DNA of 37,722 nt from positions 1 through 37,722 of the IMG/VR virus record IMGVR_UViG_3300020161_000333; one strand, written 5' to 3'. Shown in pieces: positions 1,481 to 33,258 of this stretch; position 1 is the first letter of the stretch, and each line of letters starts with the position of its first letter. The notes beneath the pieces were generated by a model. It had not been told where the DNA came from and ran no database searches. It saw only the letters and a list, made by a program, of their open reading frames with translations. The stretch comes from a virus (Duplodnaviria > Caudoviricetes). Position numbers and translations under genes: made by a program.

Positions 1481-2116
1481 ATGTATATTAATATTAAGAC
1501 CGTTAACGCTCTCGCTAAATACATCGCACCAAAAGATGATATTCGTTACTACCTTAATGGGATTTTGCTGGAAATTACGGATAAAGCAAGATTTTATGCC
1601 GCTACTGACGGGCACAAAATGGTTGTTATTCGAGAAGAAAGGCAAGAGGGCGACGAATCAGGGCAATGGATTTTGCCGCGTGATATCGTTCTTGGAATTA
1701 AACTAAGCAAACGTCCGGTAATTGATATCGCAGAATTTAATCAAGAAAATGGCAAGGCAAGTATTAAATATTGCGGTACTGAAACATCCTTTGGACTGAT
1801 TGAAGGAAAGTTTCCAGAATGGCGCAGGGTTATACCTGTTTCTACGTCCGGGGAAATTGCACAATTTAACCCTGATTATTTAGTCGCAATCCGTGACTGT
1901 GCAAAATCCACTGTTGGAACAGCCGGATATTGTGGTTTGTCTCTATTGCATAACGGAACTTCGGCATCACTCTACCAAGCTAACGATATAAACTTTATCG
2001 CGGTTATCATGCCACTGCGTATTAACAAAGCTGATGTTTATTCACCCAATCAGGACGTACTAAGCAATTATTGGGGTTTTTCTAAGCCACTGGAAAGCGT
2101 GAAAAATGCAGCATAG
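1481..2116 (+). CDS. DNA polymerase III beta-clamp-like protein, shortened (211 aa)
   Basis: DnaN motifs DIRYYLNGILLE, AATDGHKM, LIEGKFPEWRRVIP, FNPDYL, AVIMPLR; AGGA RBS before ATG 1481. Confidence 0.8.
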   Translation: MYINIKTVNALAKYIAPKDDIRYYLNGILLEITDKARFYAATDGHKMVVIREERQEGDESGQWILPRDIVLGIKLSKRPVIDIAEFNQENGKASIKYCGTETSFGLIEGKFPEWRRVIPVSTSGEIAQFNPDYLVAIRDCAKSTVGTAGYCGLSLLHNGTSASLYQANDINFIAVIMPLRINKADVYSPNQDVLSNYWGFSKPLESVKNAA

Positions 2117-2307: not shown

Positions 2308-2349
2308 GGTATTATGTTAGTGAGCGCTTACACTGTAAACAATACGCGC

Positions 2350-2450
2350 ACAGGGCGACACAGGGCGACACAGGGCGACACAGGGCGACACAGGGCGACC
2401 ACAGGGCGACCACAGGGCTACCACAGGGCGACCACAGGGCGACCACAGGA
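2350..2450 (+). repeat. Tandem array of ACAGGGCGAC(C), 9 units plus a partial one, 10-11 bp period
   Basis: Read directly; one variant ACAGGGCTAC; no spacers. Confidence 0.95.
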
Positions 2451-6845: not shown

Positions 6846-7381
6846 TTCAATTTACCTTTAGCTGCTTCTTTTTCTTTAGCCATCATCATGCGTTCATCAG
6901 TGTTCATAGCAAACCAAATCTTTTGCAGTTCATCCAAAGAATCTGCGTTTTGAAGTTTGAACTTAAGAGTTTCGTAATCGCCGCAAAACTCTTTGTTAAA
7001 CACTTCTTTTAAAACTGAAGCGTTGCCATCATCATCTTCGGGTGCAATACCACATGCCGCCATCAACGAACCCCTACGGCAATACGTCAGCGCACTCATA
7101 TAGCCTTGCGCGTCACCTTTAACCGATGGGAAATACAATTTTCCACCTGAAAGCTGTTCGCCCGATTCATGGATAAACAGAGTTTCAACAATTACTCCGT
7201 TATCGTGAGCATGAGTTCCTTGAACCAGTGAAATGCCGTTTTCGTTTAAAGCATCCATTACCGCTTCCAAGCAACTAGCTAAGTCAGCGTATTTACTTTT
7301 GTAGTGCGGATTCAGCGAGTTTTTCAGCGCAGGAGAGAATTTCCTCTGTGCGTTTAGAAATGCGGCTGCTATCTCTTTCAT
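6842..7381 (-). CDS. erf: ERF-family single-strand annealing protein
   Basis: NPHYKSKYADL, HESGE, QGYMSALTYCRR, GIAPEDDDGN. Confidence 0.92.
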   Translation of the reverse strand: MKEIAAAFLNAQRKFSPALKNSLNPHYKSKYADLASCLEAVMDALNENGISLVQGTHAHDNGVIVETLFIHESGEQLSGGKLYFPSVKGDAQGYMSALTYCRRGSLMAACGIAPEDDDGNASVLKEVFNKEFCGDYETLKFKLQNADSLDELQKIWFAMNTDERMMMAKEKEAAKGKLK

Positions 7382-7523
7382 GTTGTGCCTTTTCGTATTC
7401 GTTTAAGATTTCAATCAAAATGCCAATGTAATAATCACTGTCAAACTTATACTGCGGATAATTCCTACAAAACTCTGCTAACCCACAAAAACGCCCTAGT
7501 GCTACCGCTTGATAGTCTGTCAT
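7293..7523 (-). CDS. Hypothetical protein, first gene of the leftward operon
   Basis: Perfect GGAGGTGA RBS before ATG 7523. Confidence 0.65.
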   Translation of the reverse strand: MTDYQAVALGRFCGLAEFCRNYPQYKFDSDYYIGILIEILNEYEKAQHERDSSRISKRTEEILSCAEKLAESALQK

Positions 7524-7541
7524 TTGTCACCTCCGAGACAG

Positions 7542-7570
7542 ACTGTAAACTGTCAATTTATGAAAGTCAA
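7542..7570 (-). promoter_or_regulatory. Leftward sigma70 promoter
   Basis: TTGACT-17 bp-TACAGT on the minus strand. Confidence 0.65.
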
Positions 7571-7581
7571 CATTTATTTGC

Positions 7582-7610
7582 TTGCGCCTATAAAAAAAAG
7601 CATTTAATAT
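7582..7610 (+). promoter_or_regulatory. Rightward sigma70 promoter
   Basis: TTGCGC-17 bp-TAATAT, back to back with the leftward promoter. Confidence 0.45.
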
Positions 7611-7616
7611 CGGTTT

Positions 7617-7992
7617 GCCTGTGAAAAAGACAGGTCGCTCTGTGGCGGAGTGCGAAGTGTAGCGAACCCTTACACATTGGGTTTCGGTCTTGATGTGCGA
7701 CTTTCTACACTTTGCGCCCATCTACGCCGCGACCTAAACCCAAGCTGTAAGGGTTTTTCATTGGCCGTACTGTCCGCGATAGCAATGGGCTTGTATGGGC
7801 CGCTGACAAGAATACACATGGAGCGTACTCACACGGTGCGTATCCTTCGCGGCGTGTCAGAGAGCGACCGCACAAAATAGATGGTCTATAGGTGAGACAA
7901 GCCTTCTATTGATGAATCTCTGCCTTCGGGTGCTGTAGGTTTCTCAGGAGCCATTGAGACACTAGCAGAAAGTGATGTTGGCTATCACCTTT
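7617..7992 (+). ncRNA. Putative large structured RNA or leader (~370 nt), family unknown
   Basis: Nested stems: 7618-22/7630-34, 7633-41/7861-69, 7665-74/7746-55, 7677-89/7731-43, 7803-08/7855-60, C(UUCG)G loop 7924-29, 7972-76/7984-88; GC-richer than flanks; no convincing ORF. Confidence 0.6.
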
Positions 7993-8001
7993 GGGGAACC
8001 T

Positions 8002-8388
8002 ATGCTTATAAAAAACGATTTATTTCTACAGCAAATAAAAGATTTTAGTGGGCTAAGATTTAATTCAATTTCCCCCACCGACATTGATGGTTTCCTAGAT
8101 TTTGGAAATAGATTATTTGTCTTTATAGAAACTAAGTTTGGGGATTCGCAGCTTCAATACGGCCAGCGGTTAGCTTTAGAACGTCTGTGCGATGCAACTC
8201 ACAATCCGCCATCGCGCAATTCCATTGTTTTAATAACCCGGCACGATACCCAAGCTGGTGAAAAAATTGATTTAGCCAAAAGCATTGTTTTTAAATATCG
8301 GTTTGATAAAAAATGGGCAATTTGCGAACCAATTTCATTGTTGGACACAATAAATCTGTTAAGAATCAAATACTTATCAAAAAAATAA
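8002..8388 (+). CDS. Putative PD-(D/E)xK nuclease-fold protein, 128 aa
   Basis: PTDIDG...FIETK...GQ motif order resembles VRR-NUC-like nucleases; GGGGAA RBS before ATG 8002. Confidence 0.6.
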   Translation: MLIKNDLFLQQIKDFSGLRFNSISPTDIDGFLDFGNRLFVFIETKFGDSQLQYGQRLALERLCDATHNPPSRNSIVLITRHDTQAGEKIDLAKSIVFKYRFDKKWAICEPISLLDTINLLRIKYLSKK

Positions 8389-8396
8389 AATAATTG

Positions 8397-8426
8397 TTTA
8401 CTTTTACTTAATTATCAATTTATGAT
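8397..8426 (+). promoter_or_regulatory. Putative sigma70 promoter
   Basis: TTTACT-18 bp-TATGAT in an AT-rich gap before an AAGGAG RBS. Confidence 0.4.
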
Positions 8427-8454
8427 GTATTCACCTTAACAAAGGAGATACGAC

Positions 8455-8664
8455 ATGACACAAAACGACATTATCAAGAATCATTTTAAGAATCATAAAA
8501 CCATCACTACCCTGCAAGCGTTTTCGATGTATGGCATTACGCGACTTGCCTCAAGAATCCTTGAACTGCGCGAATCTGGAATGAAAATTTCCGGTTACAT
8601 GATTGACGTTAAAAATCGTCGCGGCGAGATTGTTAAAGTTAAAAAATACTACGTGGGGAAATAA
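8455..8664 (+). CDS. Phage helix-turn-helix protein
   Basis: ITTLQAF..YGITRLASRILELRESG; AAGGAG RBS. Confidence 0.8.
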   Translation: MTQNDIIKNHFKNHKTITTLQAFSMYGITRLASRILELRESGMKISGYMIDVKNRRGEIVKVKKYYVGK

Positions 8665-8903
8665 TGGACATTGGCGGAGAATTTACAACAACCGTTTGTG
8701 ATATTGACGGTAATCAGCATGAAGTCACTGTTCGATACAAAGGTTATTACTTTCCCCCAATTCGCAATTGTTCGTCCGAAGGTTCATTTCCAGCAGAGGG
8801 CTATATTGACCTTGAAATAGATTACCCGGCCGGTATTAAGTTTGCAGATTTAGAAGAATATCTCCACGATAAAGCATGGGAGCATTACGATGGAAGATTT
8901 TGA
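8664..8903 (+). CDS. Small acidic hypothetical protein
   Basis: TAATG coupling; GGGG RBS. Confidence 0.7.
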   Translation: MDIGGEFTTTVCDIDGNQHEVTVRYKGYYFPPIRNCSSEGSFPAEGYIDLEIDYPAGIKFADLEEYLHDKAWEHYDGRF

Positions 8904-9186
8904 GATTTTCTGGAAAGCATATCCCCGGCGTGTAGCCAAAGCAGTAGCAAGGAAAGCATGGATTCAAACCGCAAGGATTAGACCTTCGCTTGAAGAATTG
9001 CTTAAAGCCATTGAAACGCAATGCGAGTCTGAACAATGGCAAAAAGACGGTGGACAATACATTCCGCACCCTGCGACTTGGCTTCGTGGTGAACGCTGGT
9101 CTGATGAAATGGAAGTCAACGTAAAACCTAAACAATCGCAAACATTGTCCGCGATTTACAGTCTGCAATTACTTAAAAATGGATAA
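8890..9186 (+). CDS. Stand-alone C-terminal domain of a phage replication initiator
   Basis: FEIFWKAYPRRVAKAVARKAW...YIPHPATWLRGERWSDE, normally the C-terminus of O-like replisome organisers. Confidence 0.7.
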   Translation: MEDFEIFWKAYPRRVAKAVARKAWIQTARIRPSLEELLKAIETQCESEQWQKDGGQYIPHPATWLRGERWSDEMEVNVKPKQSQTLSAIYSLQLLKNG

Positions 9187-9388
9187 CGTCAACCATCCCA
9201 AGCATTACACAAATCATCCATCTGGGATTGAATGTATCCAAGTAACTGAACACATGAATTTTTGCCTCGGAAACGCCATTAAGTATTTATGGAGAGCAGA
9301 TTTAAAAAACGGGGTGGAAGATTTAAAAAAAGCGGCTTGGTACATCAACAGAGAAATTCAGCGGAGGGAAAATGTGGCTAAAGAATGA
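9179..9388 (+). CDS. DUF3310 (SaV/T7 gp1.7-like) protein
   Basis: DNVNHPKHY...IECI...FCLGNAIKYLWR...EDLKKAAWY. Confidence 0.9.
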   Translation: MDNVNHPKHYTNHPSGIECIQVTEHMNFCLGNAIKYLWRADLKNGVEDLKKAAWYINREIQRRENVAKE

Positions 9389-9719
9389 AATCGTTGACGG
9401 TCTGCAAAGATTAATTTCTTTGCGGCTAAGAAACGCTCCTTCAGCCGATACGGTTACTGCGACTGCCGTGGTTTGGTGTGAAACGGTAGCCAGCAGACCG
9501 ATTTCTTGGGATGAAAGGCTAGACAGGAAACGCATTAAAACGGCTTTTAGCGAGTTGTGCGCGACAGTTGACAGCTTTCCTTCGCCAGCACAATTCCTGC
9601 GAGTCCTGCCGCCGCGTGAGCAAGCGTTATGCCTTCCGCAACCGCAGTCAGCAGAACTTTCTGCGGAGAACAGGCAAAAACTGAGTACTTTGTTAAAAAG
9701 ACTTAGAACAGTTAATTAA
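9372..9719 (+). CDS. Hypothetical protein, possible helicase-loader-like
   Basis: VW...AF...FPSPAQF pattern and position after an initiator-like gene; function inferred. Confidence 0.55.
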   Translation: MWLKNEIVDGLQRLISLRLRNAPSADTVTATAVVWCETVASRPISWDERLDRKRIKTAFSELCATVDSFPSPAQFLRVLPPREQALCLPQPQSAELSAENRQKLSTLLKRLRTVN

Positions 9720-9724
9720 TTAAC

Positions 9725-9807
9725 GGGCGAGTGGTGAAATTGGTAAACACAGCAGACTTAAAATCTGCCGCTAACGCTTGCCGGTTCGATTCCGGCCTCG
9801 CCTACCA
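9725..9807 (+). tRNA. tRNA-Leu(TAA)
   Basis: Acceptor GGGCGAG/CTCGCCT, D-loop TGGTA, anticodon arm GCAGA-CTTAAAA-TCTGC, variable arm, T arm GCCGG-TTCGATT-CCGGC, encoded CCA. Confidence 0.95.
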
Positions 9808-9827
9808 AATGAGAAGATGAAACTACC

Positions 9828-10265
9828 CTAAACAAAAACCCTAGTGCCGGATTTATCAATAATCAAAGCTGATTTTCTGGGGTTAAATTCTGGCGCATTA
9901 GGTACGGAAATATGAGTCCATGAATCGAACTCAAGAATAATCTGGTCAAAAGGAATTGCAGCTTTAATACATGCTTCGACTACTTCGCGTGGCTTCATTC
10001 CCGGCACTCTAATGTCCGCAGCACAGCCTAAACGATGCTGACTGGTATCTTTTGAACCAACAGAATCGTTGACCTGTTTAGACCGAAAACCGGAATTAAT
10101 CATTACCGGCTTGTTGCCTAGCGCAGTTTTAACTTGCTGAAGTAACTCCGCAAGACGCTTTAAGTTTGAAATTTCTTGTTCGTTAGGAATGTTATCCCAT
10201 CCGTTTCGATTCGCAGCTTCAGAGCGCGTCAATTCCTCAAGAGAAAAGTTTGCAGTCAACTGCAT
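9828..10265 (-). CDS. Endolysin, peptidase M15A family
   Basis: NFSLEEL, INSGFR, SQH..GCAAD, WTHIS Zn-peptidase motifs. Confidence 0.9.
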   Translation of the reverse strand: MQLTANFSLEELTRSEAANRNGWDNIPNEQEISNLKRLAELLQQVKTALGNKPVMINSGFRSKQVNDSVGSKDTSQHRLGCAADIRVPGMKPREVVEACIKAAIPFDQIILEFDSWTHISVPNAPEFNPRKSALIIDKSGTRVFV

Positions 10266-11574: not shown

Positions 11575-12012
11575 TTAAAAAGTTCTCAGATTGTATAGGA
11601 CTTTTTCAGGGCTAACAAATTTGCTTGCGTCAAATTCGACGGATTCCCACCAAAGAAATTGATTCTTTGATAAACAATCCCGACTTTTTAATAAATTAAT
11701 ATTTTCTGGATAACCGTAAATATTTGGGTCTGAAACAGACCATAAAACAATGCCTCGCTTACCTAATGACGAGGCTAAATGCTGCAAAAAACTATCGCAA
11801 GAAATCCAAACTCTGCAATCATGTATTAACTTTTTAAGTTCATCGACTGGCAAGTTTTTCCTGAAGTCATTAACTAATTGCTTTTCGCCTTCTATCCCAA
11901 TTTGAATAATAGGTTCTTGTATTTGAGATATGACTTCATCCCAATACGGATAATTCTTGGGATTGGTTTTACCATTAGTTAATTGCTTTGAGTAAGGGCT
12001 AATTAAAATCAT
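11575..12012 (-). CDS. GT9 (heptosyltransferase-like) glycosyltransferase, C-terminal domain
   Basis: KNYPYW, ISCDSFLQHLA..LGKRGIVLW. Confidence 0.8.
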   Translation of the reverse strand: MILISPYSKQLTNGKTNPKNYPYWDEVISQIQEPIIQIGIEGEKQLVNDFRKNLPVDELKKLIHDCRVWISCDSFLQHLASSLGKRGIVLWSVSDPNIYGYPENINLLKSRDCLSKNQFLWWESVEFDASKFVSPEKVLYNLRTF

Positions 12013-12986
12013 AAATATAGCTTTCGATAAGCACTCTCTAGGCTTTCAGTCCAATTCCATTCCGCCATCTTTTTGTAAATGTTCCATTGGTCTAAATCGC
12101 CAAACAATGCTTTCGCTTCCGCAATAGACCTGCAAGGTATAATTTCTGGATAGCACCCGAATACAACTGGATTCTTTATTTCTGGAAGAATCCTGCTAAA
12201 TACTACGTGGTCGCCCATTCCATTGTTTAAAACAACAATAGTTTTTTCTTTATAGCTAATTATGTTTTTGAATATGTTTTCGTCATGGTCAAACATTTCC
12301 TGCTTTTGACCATCGCGGATTCCGCCTTTAGGGTTTTTCATGTGCCATGTAACGGCTTTTGGCACAACTAATAATTTATACCCTTTTTGATGTATCCCAT
12401 AAGAAAACAATGTTTCTTCCCTATGGGCTACCCTAGACAATCCTAAGTTGTAATCGTGTATCCCCGCACGATACAAAAATGAACAATGTAAATGTTCTAC
12501 AGACTTTATCTGTTTAATGTTTTTCCATTGAACGCTAGGCTCAGTATCAATGTTTTCAAGAAGTCCAGTAGGGTCTGAATTCTCAAAAAACAATGGCGGC
12601 GTAAGAATTGAACCGCCAATCGCTCCAATGTTGTAATCAATATACTTAGATAAAGTTTCTAATACGTTATGTTCTGGGATTGCATCATCATCGACGCGCC
12701 ACACCCAATCAAACCCCATAGTGTTAGCTGTTTGATGTATATGATGCTGGCCTTTCTTACCGGCAAACAACCATTCCCACTGAATATTTTTAATGTCTAG
12801 TATTTTAAAAAAATGCTGATACAGGAATTCATTTCTCATATCCTGCGGTTCGTCGTTATCATCAAAAATTACCAGCTTATCTGGAAGTTTTGTTTGATTA
12901 ACAATCGCAAATAGAACCAAAGGCAAAGTAGAAAAATATCTTCCCTTTGTCGCAACAGAACAAAGAATTTTAGACATTGTATTCAC
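12009..12986 (-). CDS. GT2 glycosyltransferase with a GT9-like N-domain at its C-terminus
   Basis: NQTKLPDKLVIFDD, WRVDDD (DxD), REET; C-terminal NGMGDHV. Confidence 0.85.
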   Translation of the reverse strand: MNTMSKILCSVATKGRYFSTLPLVLFAIVNQTKLPDKLVIFDDNDEPQDMRNEFLYQHFFKILDIKNIQWEWLFAGKKGQHHIHQTANTMGFDWVWRVDDDAIPEHNVLETLSKYIDYNIGAIGGSILTPPLFFENSDPTGLLENIDTEPSVQWKNIKQIKSVEHLHCSFLYRAGIHDYNLGLSRVAHREETLFSYGIHQKGYKLLVVPKAVTWHMKNPKGGIRDGQKQEMFDHDENIFKNIISYKEKTIVVLNNGMGDHVVFSRILPEIKNPVVFGCYPEIIPCRSIAEAKALFGDLDQWNIYKKMAEWNWTESLESAYRKLYL

Positions 12987-14229
12987 ACAGCATTAAATTC
13001 ATACCATCAAACGGAACAATACCAATTTGTCCATTTTCACTCATAAATTTGTATTCAAACCCGGAAAAATGCTTTTCTTCCAGCATGTGTAATTTATGAT
13101 GTTCGCCCCAGAATCCCGGCGTTTCTTTATATGGAACAGTGATAAGCAATCGTTTGCAATGATTTTTTAAAAGCTGTGCAATTTCCATTCCGTTATCTAA
13201 ATGTTCTATAACTTCCATAGCAACAATCGTATGGTATTGCTGCAATTCAAAAGTATTAATGTCAGAATGAACAAACTTTTTATTGTCTCCCCATCCTTCT
13301 TCTTTTGCTACCTCTATAATATTTACATCGTAATCTAAACCAAGATAATCTATTTCATTGCCAAAGAATTGAGAGCCATAACCATTAGAACAACCAATTT
13401 CTAATACGTTATTTCCAATCAATCTGTTAGATGCCCACAAGTAACGGGCCTTTTCTCTTGGTGCAACTTCCTCACCTTTGATTGCCATGTAACGCTCAAA
13501 GTTATTCATCAAACTCCATTTGTAATAAATGGGGTTATATTTACGCGCCAATTTTCTGCAATTCCTACGGAAAATGCTATTAAAGTCTTTAACTAAATCC
13601 GGGTTGTGAACCGTTCCTTCCCCTGCGTGATAAATGGGGAAATTCCCGCTGTAACTAAATTCATCTAATATTTGTTTGGGGCTTGCTTCAACCATTTTAA
13701 AACCTGCTTTTACTGCTTCAATAGAGAATTCTGTATCCTCTCCCGTTCCAACTCCATAATCTTCGTTAAGCAAACCAATTTTTTCAAATACTTTCTTGTG
13801 AATCATTACGCAAAAGAAAACGCAAAAATCGTGACCTGCTTCCGGGGAATGTTGGCAAACGGGGCCGCAAATTCCCACGGACGAATCTTGTAGAAACGCA
13901 GCATCCATCATGTTTAACCAACGGTTTTTTTCTTGGTCTAGTAAAACCGTATCATTGTTTAACAATACAATTTTTTCGCAAGAGGCTTGCGTAATTGCCA
14001 CGTTATTAGCTTTGGCATATCCCAACGGATTATCGTGCCAAATTACCTTGATGTTAGGAATTGCGGTAACTAAATAATCAAGATAAGCCTTAGTGTTATC
14101 AAAGCATCCGTTCGCGGATACTATTAATTCAATATCATTTAAATCCGTGTATTTAATTATTGAATCAACGCATGGTTTAAGATATTTTTCGCAATTATTG
14201 TATGTCGGTATAACTATAGTGTATTTCAT
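12970..14229 (-). CDS. GT2 glycosyltransferase fused to a class I SAM methyltransferase
   Basis: TIVIPTYN, GYAKANN, LLNNDT, EDTEF; then VLEIGCSNGYG and EVIEHL. Confidence 0.9.
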   Translation of the reverse strand: MKYTIVIPTYNNCEKYLKPCVDSIIKYTDLNDIELIVSANGCFDNTKAYLDYLVTAIPNIKVIWHDNPLGYAKANNVAITQASCEKIVLLNNDTVLLDQEKNRWLNMMDAAFLQDSSVGICGPVCQHSPEAGHDFCVFFCVMIHKKVFEKIGLLNEDYGVGTGEDTEFSIEAVKAGFKMVEASPKQILDEFSYSGNFPIYHAGEGTVHNPDLVKDFNSIFRRNCRKLARKYNPIYYKWSLMNNFERYMAIKGEEVAPREKARYLWASNRLIGNNVLEIGCSNGYGSQFFGNEIDYLGLDYDVNIIEVAKEEGWGDNKKFVHSDINTFELQQYHTIVAMEVIEHLDNGMEIAQLLKNHCKRLLITVPYKETPGFWGEHHKLHMLEEKHFSGFEYKFMSENGQIGIVPFDGMNLMLCEYNV

Positions 14230-30835: not shown

Positions 30836-31867
30836 TTAAGCACCGTAGAGCCGAACTCCCGCGAATACATCACGAATGGTAGAGCAAGTACGCTTTTCCG
30901 CATACAAAGTAACAAAGCCCGGAGCAGTTTGTTCCATCATTTGCAGCTTCATTTCTTCGTTATCCGCAATCGTCACAAAACGATTCCAAGCGGCAAGATA
31001 AACGGGGAATTTACCGCTTCCGGCTACATCCATATACGGATTAGGAATTACAGGGAAACCGGCGATATGCCCAACTGCGTAACCGTCAACTTCGCCAATA
31101 TCAAGGAACAGCGGCAGTTGTTGGTCGTCGCGCAGTTCGCGCAGATTCTTAATTGTCGTAGGGTGCATCATCCAAGCGGTAGAAGGATTGTTCCAATACT
31201 GCGAGGGTAACGCAGATGCAAGATTCATAATGTCGTTATAACCGACAGAGGCCGCACTAGCTTGGGCAACTTGCAACATCGTATGCCGACCATTGGTATC
31301 AGCCGAACCACTGGTGCCGAACGCCGCTGCACTGGTTGAACCCGTGTAGAAATTCAATCCGCGCAGACCGTCAGTGCTACCAGTTTGCGGAGTAGCAGTT
31401 CCGCTAGAAAGGTCATTGTTCAGAACCATGCTCAAACCTTCTTGTTGGGCAAATTCCAAAGCAATATCTTCAACAATGGTTTCTTGCAGATTATCAATGT
31501 CGGACATAACAGCAGTCCGAATCGGCACAACAGCGTTAATACATTTCAGCGAAATTTGCCAAAACGAAGCGCCGTAATTACCGACGTTATTCTTTACACC
31601 GTAGCCCCACGGATTAGTAGAACCCGTTTGAATTACGGTAGCGTCACCAGTTTTGACAACAAATGCTTCATCGGAGCCAATGGTAGTAATAACACGACTC
31701 ATCATGCGAATAGGGTTAGCGTATCGCAAAGCAGCGAACGCATCGTCGTAAATAACTCGACCGCCGACACCTGAACCCGAAGCGGTAAGCGTAGATGCCT
31801 CTGCGAGATTTACAGTCGCCTCGCCTTCTTTAAGTGTTTTCTTTACTGCTTCAAGAATCAGGCTCAT
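30836..31867 (-). CDS. Second HK97-fold capsid protein paralogue, lacking the long N-terminal scaffold domain
   Basis: Colinear similarity to 31927-33258 (ASTLTASGSGVGGR / SSTLTGSGAGIGGR; LRYANPIR / LRLANPMR; GLRGLN; PGFVTLYAEKR / PGFITFYGEKR). Confidence 0.88.
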   Translation of the reverse strand: MSLILEAVKKTLKEGEATVNLAEASTLTASGSGVGGRVIYDDAFAALRYANPIRMMSRVITTIGSDEAFVVKTGDATVIQTGSTNPWGYGVKNNVGNYGASFWQISLKCINAVVPIRTAVMSDIDNLQETIVEDIALEFAQQEGLSMVLNNDLSSGTATPQTGSTDGLRGLNFYTGSTSAAAFGTSGSADTNGRHTMLQVAQASAASVGYNDIMNLASALPSQYWNNPSTAWMMHPTTIKNLRELRDDQQLPLFLDIGEVDGYAVGHIAGFPVIPNPYMDVAGSGKFPVYLAAWNRFVTIADNEEMKLQMMEQTAPGFVTLYAEKRTCSTIRDVFAGVRLYGA

Positions 31868-31890
31868 AAATATTCCAATCTAATTTTATG

Positions 31891-31920
31891 AAAAGAGGGG
31901 AGCAGGTTTCCCCGCCCCCC
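31891..31920 (-). terminator. Terminator between the two capsid genes
   Basis: GGGGGGCGGG-GAAA-CCTGCTCCCC followed by TCTTTT on the minus strand. Confidence 0.75.
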
Positions 31921-31926
31921 GCCTTT

Positions 31927-33258
31927 TTACAGAGCGCCCGTAGCGGTGGAGCGATACCGAATGATGCTGAACGGGTCAACTACGCTGGTGCAAAGCCGTT
32001 TCTCGCCGTAGAACGTGATGAAACCGGGGAGAGTTTGGTCGTAACGGCGCATAACCATGTTCAGACGGTCAACGATGGTATGTCCACGGCTCCAATCACC
32101 GAAATACATCGGATACAGCGAGTCAGTGCCCGGAGAAGCATCGGGAGCAGTCGGATTGTCAAGATATTTATTCACGACAACATCGAAGCCGAGCAGACGA
32201 CCAACAATACCGTTAGTTTCCAGCGGGGCCATACGCTCAAACACCGGAGTACCGTTATCGTCAACCAGACCACGGATGCCAGCAAGCATCAGCGGGTTAA
32301 TGATAAAGCGGCAACCCGGAGTCCAATACTGTTGCGGCAGGTCATGGATAAAGTCAATCAGGTCTTTGTAACTGACGTTATTTGCCGAACCCGCAGCATT
32401 GGTCGTAATCTGGTCATACGTTGCAATGTCATGCAGACCAGACGAAGAACCAGTGCCGGTTGTGCCAAAATCAGCAACAGTGATTTCACCCGGAGCATAC
32501 GTCGCAGCAGCGCCAGCGTATTGATTCAGACCGCGCAGACCATTCGTGCCGCCATAAGCCGCACCTGCATCTTGGTCGTCGTTCTTAATCATCGACAGTG
32601 CTTCAACTTCCGAGAATTCAACCAGCATGTCCGAAACCACGTTGCTTTCCAGACCATCAATATCGTCCAGCGCAGCGGTACGAATCGGGAATTGCACGTT
32701 CAGGTCTTGCAGCGTCAGTTGCCAGATGTTCGTGCCAACAGTCGTTGCGCCACCGTTGTTCTGAATGGTGTAACCCCAAGCAGGGCCGGTATTGCCGATT
32801 TTGGCGCGGAACTGATACGTTGCGCCTTCCGTCGAAACATTACGCGAAACACCACGCATCGGGTTAGCAAGACGCAGCGGAACAAACATCGGGTCATACG
32901 CGGTGCGACCGCCGATGCCAGCGCCAGAACCAGTCAGAGTCGAACTTTCTTTGAAGAAAGCATCGTATTGGCCTTCGTCAGCGAACATCTTGATTTCTTT
33001 TTCCATCGTGCGACTGGATTTGTAGAAATCGCGCAGTTGTTCTTTGACCGAACGGTTCACATCTTCACGAACGCTTTTAGCGATTTTGATAATCGCCGGG
33101 GTTTGAATCGCGGCAACTTTGGCTTCCAGCGCAGCGACTTGTTCCGTCACTTGGGTTTTTACTTCTTCCAGCGACTTAGCAACTTCGCCTTTGATTTCTT
33201 CCACTTTGGCGACATTAGCCGCTTCAATGGCATCCAGCTTTTCAATGACTTCTTTCAT
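31927..33258 (-). CDS. Major capsid protein, HK97 family
   Basis: N-terminal coiled-coil delta domain; RLLGFDVVVNKYL, YFGDW; follows the protease. Confidence 0.95.
   Translation of the reverse strand: MKEVIEKLDAIEAANVAKVEEIKGEVAKSLEEVKTQVTEQVAALEAKVAAIQTPAIIKIAKSVREDVNRSVKEQLRDFYKSSRTMEKEIKMFADEGQYDAFFKESSTLTGSGAGIGGRTAYDPMFVPLRLANPMRGVSRNVSTEGATYQFRAKIGNTGPAWGYTIQNNGGATTVGTNIWQLTLQDLNVQFPIRTAALDDIDGLESNVVSDMLVEFSEVEALSMIKNDDQDAGAAYGGTNGLRGLNQYAGAAATYAPGEITVADFGTTGTGSSSGLHDIATYDQITTNAAGSANNVSYKDLIDFIHDLPQQYWTPGCRFIINPLMLAGIRGLVDDNGTPVFERMAPLETNGIVGRLLGFDVVVNKYLDNPTAPDASPGTDSLYPMYFGDWSRGHTIVDRLNMVMRRYDQTLPGFITFYGEKRLCTSVVDPFSIIRYRSTATGAL

Follow-up and report, generated by a model that had tools for sequence, protein, structure and literature searches.

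In phage P4, the CI RNA pairs with seqA and seqC, which leads to premature termination ahead of the replication genes (PMC4825925, available portion), and in P1/P7 specificity is determined by the a′ loop (PMC5320573, available portion). Antisense RNA also controls replication in ColE1, through RNA I and RNA II at the primer hybrid, and in pT181, through attenuation (PMC5415839, available portion). Structured motifs of 223 to 349 nt, namely ARRPOF, GEBRO, and PAGEV, have been implicated in plasmid replication, as stated in the available portion of a report that also notes how hard single-stranded DNA (ssDNA) and RNA motifs are to distinguish computationally (PMC5737381). The phage locus described here joins a known antisense design, in a form that we take to be real and new, to uncatalogued RNA cassettes.

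The window (the whole stretch of 37,722 nucleotides that was analyzed) is a 37.7-kb tailed-phage record rated complete. Gene calls across the whole window gave head genes of the HK97 type and a short operon that runs rightward and has tRNA-Leu as its last gene; ERF and exonuclease genes lie leftward of the RNA region. The sequencing runs that share its DNA are mostly freshwater metagenomes, with only 1 run (X1, possibly the source) holding more than half of its words and carrying the RNA stretch without change; no RNA run is among the runs so listed, and run X20, which is probably DNA, yielded fragments only, neither of which has a bearing on expression. Judged from relatives, the host would be betaproteobacterial. 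BLAST returned nothing meaningful against annotated phages and no plasmid sequence similarity. PHROG and Pfam searches of the window found no cI/Cro-type HTH_3, repressor, integrase, or ParA gene. The preliminary description, which had reported a plus-strand structured noncoding RNA in the position of an absent cI/cro pair, is borne out on both counts. Its back-to-back promoters fared less evenly. The leftward promoter-like site, putatively serving the ERF/exonuclease operon (7542 to 7570, minus strand), passes the consensus scan with 9/12 matches, while the rightward candidate (TTGCGC-17-TAATAT, 7582 to 7610, plus strand, with a start near 7617) lies below the scan threshold; a −10-like box found 6 to 7 nt 5′ of the first hairpin in relatives supports it. 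The consensus scan gave a second plus-strand promoter-like site, at 8397 to 8426, ahead of the downstream genes.

Those genes, all on the plus strand, begin with an optional 128-aa open reading frame (ORF; 8002 to 8388) that looks nuclease-like by eye, has no PHROG or Pfam match, is missing from several relatives, and is skipped in a contig of run X5. It is followed by a winged-helix HTH_39 protein (8455 to 8664; PF14090, E = 2e-13) and by a 98-aa replication initiator (8890 to 9186) that consists of the C-terminal domain only, matching positions 177 to 261 of phrog_270, with no Foldseek match. A probable G39P-like helicase loader (9372 to 9719) has SPP1 G39P as its best Foldseek row, a weak match at probability 0.75 but E = 0.9. 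Cumulative GC skew, tried as an origin locator, tracked gene direction and gave no origin position.

The RNA region itself had been described as a single large nested RNA without a credible ORF. Four overlapping short ORFs were tested and none had a PHROG match, and the structure is real, folding better than shuffled controls (z = −3.2 on the plus strand and −2.2 on the minus strand for the whole stretch); what does not hold is its unity. It is made of two modules, a switch (7617 to 7759) and an exchangeable cassette (7760 to 7998), which recombine independently: the same antisense hairpin, identical in sequence, occurs with different cassettes behind it. The fold-stability signal comes from the first module (z = −3.6 for RNA), and the second taken alone (7760 to 8000) has no signal of its own (z = +0.6); covariation among homologous loci is present in both. 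The region matches no Rfam family, the search returning only sub-threshold miRNA and snoRNA matches, and neither Rfam nor ARAGORN matched it to HDV-like ribozymes, GOLLD, ROOL, RNase P, or tmRNA. An HDV-like ribozyme considered by eye was rejected on a P1 register that does not fit, along with the missing Rfam match. The searchable literature and catalogues hold no description of these RNAs, with the supplement of PMC5737381 a place where the context of the Betaproteobacteria-1 motif may be covered. Three motifs, in DNA and RNA spelling, were absent from six supplementary files of PMC10690425; these RNAs may be among the candidates of that study.

Protein and pattern scans for relatives gave 67 distinct pattern cores, of which 47 were judged real and 20 were dropped as chance, and the module 1 alignment holds 45 distinct sequences. 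Module 1 lies on the plus strand and opens with a hairpin bearing an A-rich loop (7617 to 7635), paired in 100% of alignment cells with one-sided changes only, in a position equal to that of the first P4 SeqA/IsrK hairpin. A second hairpin (7637 to 7651), also 100% paired and with G-U-type changes in 5/6 pairs, displays a target that we call b, and a hypervariable single-stranded key follows as target a (7652 to 7663). The remainder (7664 to 7759) is a CI/C4-like hairpin that is also a predicted intrinsic terminator with its U run at 7754 to 7758; it carries a′ in the apical loop (7701 to 7713) and b′ in a bulge (7723 to 7730). The two-part arm noticed earlier is indeed found here, at 7665 to 7689 and 7731 to 7755. 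The basal stem is 97.7% paired with 8 two-sided pairs and the inner stem 88% paired with 5, so that in the terminator fold as a whole 96.5% of 1,850 cells are paired across the 45 sequences, with 13 two-sided pairs. None of 500 shuffles was as good, although related sequences inflate this shuffle test, and slid controls reached 33 to 52%.

What had been overlooked is that 7632 to 7662 (including 7643 to 7662 against 7705 to 7724) is complementary to 7705 to 7735 and that this duplex crosses the long arm; because the linkers are only 2 to 3 nt, the crossing duplex and the long arm are mutually exclusive. Up to position 7750, the lowest-energy prediction is the anti-terminator fold, in which a pairs with a′; at full length, the two predicted folds (−53.4 versus −51.2 kcal/mol) are about 2 kcal/mol apart. 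On these predictions, module 1 very probably has two alternative folds.

The key, about 10 nt long, and its loop occur in 40 distinct a/a′ combinations. Duplexes with the own partner average −11.7 kcal/mol versus −3.7 kcal/mol with foreign ones, and the own partner is the best in 32/40 alleles, a result equaled in 0/100,000 permutations, with some alleles being near-copies. Such variability with complementarity kept is expected under selection for new specificities. Among distant loci, 16 have switches of related design, and 10 of these pair best with their own loop (L004 being mis-segmented). We consider it likely that module 1 brings about trans-acting, key-specific termination. Rather improbable, in our judgment, is that the switch acts only in cis, by kinetics or a protein trigger, or is controlled from the opposite strand as in pT181, with the key drifting under compensation. 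There is a single target to act on, with no allele-specific second one in the 400 nt that follow (38 loci; mean rank 20.2 versus 19.5 expected), no CCA-like end for RNase P in the sequence behind the stem, and a hairpin that folds well on the minus strand also. Against either form, the key varies much more than the adjacent helices do and yet stays complementary to the loop, and the opposite-strand form would further need a promoter where an admittedly insensitive scan of 7600 to 8380 found no minus-strand promoter-like site.

The preliminary description could not assign the RNA to a known family. Module 1 does match no Rfam family; its design is nonetheless recognizable, resembling P4 SeqA/CI and P1 C4, and is to that extent less unassignable than stated. 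Like P4 SeqA/IsrK (RF01394) and c4-a1b1, it begins with a start-proximal A-loop hairpin, an abutting b-loop hairpin, and a single-stranded a, and like the P4 CI RNA its antisense part has a long basal stem, with a loop presenting a′ and a bulge presenting b′; as in a C4-type RNA, a′ and b′ are unpaired and complementary to upstream a and b, judging from the predicted fold and covariation. Like the P4 immunity region, as given in the available portion of PMC4825925, it stands ahead of replication genes without a protein repressor. It differs from P4 in having the antisense part within the terminator hairpin itself, where P4 places it behind a separate terminator, and in that no second target (seqC, a2-b2) follows, the gated product starting instead with a noncoding cassette. 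With P1/P7 C4 it shares the variable a′ loop, which sets specificity there (PMC5320573, available portion), but the anti-repressor gene and the second a/b site of P1/P7 are absent, and the window family has one inner hairpin. The P4 sequence, run as a control, matched Rfam C4 (RF01695), isrK (RF01394), and c4-a1b1 (RF03163), whereas the window gave zero matches up to E = 10 to C4, c4-a1b1, isrK, or c4-2. Conversely, the module 1 model does not detect P4 (E > 5), and even distant switches of a more C4-like build are missed by C4 and c4-2. With no second target and the antisense part inside the terminator, module 1 has a CI/C4-like build, yet it is not a member of that family.

An integrase was found in none of three near-complete genomes of the group and in only 2/29 records, and no module 1 copy was found in bacterial genomes: seven pattern matches were all chance, and model R1 gave zero matches across 151 bacterial genomes of one family. 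We therefore read the switch as replication control or same-key exclusion more than as classical prophage immunity. The two integrase-bearing records (L195 and L196) are both of the primase-helicase type and encode a 279-aa tyrosine recombinase with a putative role in integration. Elsewhere, a hairpin laid out in much the same way and ending in a terminator, but with no module 2, occurs in a phage whose initiator is full length and bears repeats (L338:3640-3800, minus strand); this switch is read by eye only, its own loop not being the best partner of its key in the automated test. Another phage has a small int-alpA-like RNA flanked by a short Cro-like gene and the gene for the initiator (L327:4392-4467, minus strand; 32.5 bits, below the cutoff of 35.8), with a like stretch in L353; it is possibly a third kind of switch in the same slot.

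Behind the U run, the 47 loci carry cassettes that fall into clusters of 17, 12 (the window type), 7, 2, and 2, plus 7 singletons, which we read as at least nine unrelated types. The window type (7760 to 7998, plus strand) is a multi-hairpin RNA with two-sided changes at 17/63 predicted pairs in 12 sequences, and the largest type has them at 21/59; given z = +0.6, module 2 is supported by covariation, not by stability. It is an uncatalogued covarying RNA, and eight distant members of the window type were found later. Its features include a UUCG hairpin at 7922 to 7931, where a C(UUCG)G tetraloop had been reported and is present, and a 3′ CACC-TT-GGGG motif. The CTGACA/TGTCAG helix proposed earlier (7803 to 7808 with 7855 to 7860) has its letters in place and is paired in 67/72 cells among close relatives and 53/78 among wider ones, but it is outcompeted by a local helix (7771 to 7774 with 7805 to 7808) paired in 48/48 and 51/52 cells, respectively, with several two-sided changes. 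Two possible loop-loop pairings (7828 to 7832 with 7892 to 7896 and 7855 to 7858 with 7896 to 7899) are complementary in 13/13 sequences, with covariation not beyond permutation (p = 0.20 and 0.16). Further uncatalogued cassettes of 200 to 250 nt occur at L048:1790-2008 (whose type is the one with 21/59 covarying pairs and has a probable 5′ pseudoknot), at L079:1627-1890, and in L098, L111, L102, L109, and L132.

The preliminary description, undecided between a noncoding RNA and a leader, had also closed the region with a helix spanning about 220 nt. Its strands do exist in the window (GGTCGCTCT at 7633 to 7641 and AGAGCGACC at 7861 to 7869), and the hairpin noted before the ribosome-binding site is there too (7972 to 7988), followed by a purine run and the ATG at 8002. 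A single 370-nt leader closed by this helix and controlling translation of the next ORF could draw on the helix being exact in 7/12 loci with the window-type module 2 (window counted) and on the purine run and ATG that follow in close relatives. We nevertheless hold it to be very improbable: the helix lacks any compensatory change and is missing from 35/35 loci in which the same 5′ part is followed by a different cassette, and among 20 window-type loci the ORF behind the cassette has 123 to 130 aa in six, 45 to 84 aa in two, at most 18 codons in eight, and is absent from four. A range from absent to 130 codons makes a translational leader unlikely, and of the two earlier options the structured noncoding RNA stands.

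Nor is module 2 likely to work as ssDNA, that is, as a site of the primosome-assembly or ssi-like kind that transcription exposes, a quite improbable alternative. It adjoins replication genes, and ssDNA and RNA motifs are computationally hard to separate (PMC5737381, available portion); against this, the UUCG hairpin is kept on the plus strand with a compensatory change, being paired in 36/36 cells of close relatives, and G-U-type changes are frequent in the cassettes.

A clue to function comes from the initiators. Many longer relatives of the window's initiator carry N-terminal domains, which we take from their accessions to be Phage_rep_O, HTH_36, and rep_org_N, whereas the window ORF has the C-terminal domain only. 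Nineteen of the 47 module 1 loci show this initiator downstream, and in 19/19 it has 89 to 114 aa; at 26/27 other phage initiator loci, at least 81 open codons precede the matching domain. Five RNA profiles matched 0/27 of these other loci, which are mostly from distant phages and so a weak control. In a closer set of 80 loci selected by a neighboring ERF protein, a cassette was present at 13/15 stand-alone, 1/1 intermediate, and 0/6 full-length initiators. For 13/15 versus 0/6 the Fisher p value is 5e-4, which overstates the contrast because the loci share ancestry and RNA-based scans had already turned up three of them. Known cassettes were absent from four ERF-selected loci of the T7-like primase-helicase type and from the two remaining stand-alone-initiator loci. 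Two of three full-length initiator regions examined have 12- and 15-nt periodic repeats, while window positions 7380 to 9830 hold no repeat family of at least three copies. Cassettes thus go with initiators that lack an N-terminal domain, and since they accompany those without the DNA-recognizing half, they probably help to start DNA copying; on balance we lean toward a role of module 2 in replication initiation.

Fourteen module 1 loci lack this initiator, and 6 of them have a gene resembling a T7-like primase-helicase. One singleton cassette is Rfam Betaproteobacteria-1 (RF02932), which takes the place of module 2 in L101, where the switch is the same, and in L003, L004, and L044, where the switches are related ones, all four reaching its threshold of 49.4 bits; the window cassette has a different fold, with no RF02932 match in the window. 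Across 103 loci with the Betaproteobacteria-1 pattern (pattern matches not each scored with Rfam, 33 of them under 1.5 kb), 43 have it near replication genes: 22 just behind a Toprim primase, 9 ahead of a primase-helicase, and 12 ahead of initiator domains that stand alone and belong to two families. The single match among 151 bacterial genomes also lies behind a primase.

The same motif also bears on an unlikely alternative, in which module 1 switches as proposed and module 2 is a diffusible RNA (a protein scaffold, sponge, or packaging-type RNA) freed on read-through. Near none of five replication clusters in 27/70 loci of at least 1.5 kb, the Betaproteobacteria-1 pattern lies by or between terminase and portal genes in three loci (L199, L228, and L248), and the compact multi-loop structure with possible loop-loop pairing would suit such a role. 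It leaves unexplained why cassettes pair with truncated initiators of two families and are absent beside full-length ones.

Antisense RNA would here control a replication function, as in ColE1 and pT181. In those systems it is transcribed from the opposite strand; here the antisense part belongs to the same transcript. As in ColE1, the window shows neither an origin-binding initiator nor iterons, with the caveat of the HTH_39 gene at 8455, which lies between RNA and initiator in only 9/19 loci and in those could provide DNA binding, a point against an RNA origin. A conserved 3′ G run is the one feature of module 2 that might point to an RNA-DNA hybrid. ARRPOF, GEBRO, and PAGEV differ in being plasmid-borne, and the RNA region has no Rfam match. 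We put it at even odds that the cassettes are replication origins made of RNA.

A mechanism can be proposed as follows. Transcription would start near 7617. On a lone nascent transcript, the key is predicted to pair first with a′/b′, blocking the long stem and letting the polymerase read through. The terminated 143-nt RNA, whole or trimmed, would by analogy with P4 and P1 display a′ in its loop and b′ in its bulge; it would bind the key of a new transcript, upon which the long stem and U run would form and transcription would stop. Termination would yield more of the same RNA and so restrain the phage's own replication, and it would block coinfecting phages with the same key and spare those with a different one. 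Read-through would produce module 2, probably made only then, which would stand in for the missing DNA-binding domain of the initiator, perhaps by keeping the DNA open as an RNA-DNA hybrid or by tethering the C-terminal domain; that domain and the G39P-like loader would then load the host helicase. Trans action, termination, kin exclusion, and origin function are what we infer from sequence. That module 1 is an allele-specific antisense attenuator, and that the RNA it gates acts as origin or primer for replication, seems to us evenly poised between right and wrong. More tentatively still, a widespread group of tailed phages may have replaced the cI/cro switch and protein-iteron origin with RNA, in the form of an attenuator with a fast-evolving key and interchangeable origin-recognition RNAs of 200 to 250 nt.

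If so, several replication machines unrelated to one another would have the origin-recognition half of their initiator supplied by RNA, and a self-made antisense attenuator would give replication exclusion among kin. A testable function, RNA-directed replication initiation, would be gained for a so far orphan Rfam motif and for several families of uncatalogued RNA, the forty natural keys would be a ready, orthogonal set of RNA-only transcription switches, and diversifying selection acting on an RNA code would be clearly exemplified by phages that have neither integrase nor repressor.

Other parts of the window deserve brief mention. Two tandem major-head-like genes (343 and 443 aa; 30836 to 33258, minus strand) both match phrog_10, and three glycosyltransferase genes, one fused to a methyltransferase, lie between the tail fiber and lysis genes (11575 to 14229, minus strand). 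A protein encoded at 1481 to 2116 (plus strand) matches PF02767, the central beta sliding clamp domain, and short tandem repeats at 2330 to 2440 (plus strand), close to what is probably the end of the genome, form repeating units of the GRHRAT type in an ORF of doubtful status.
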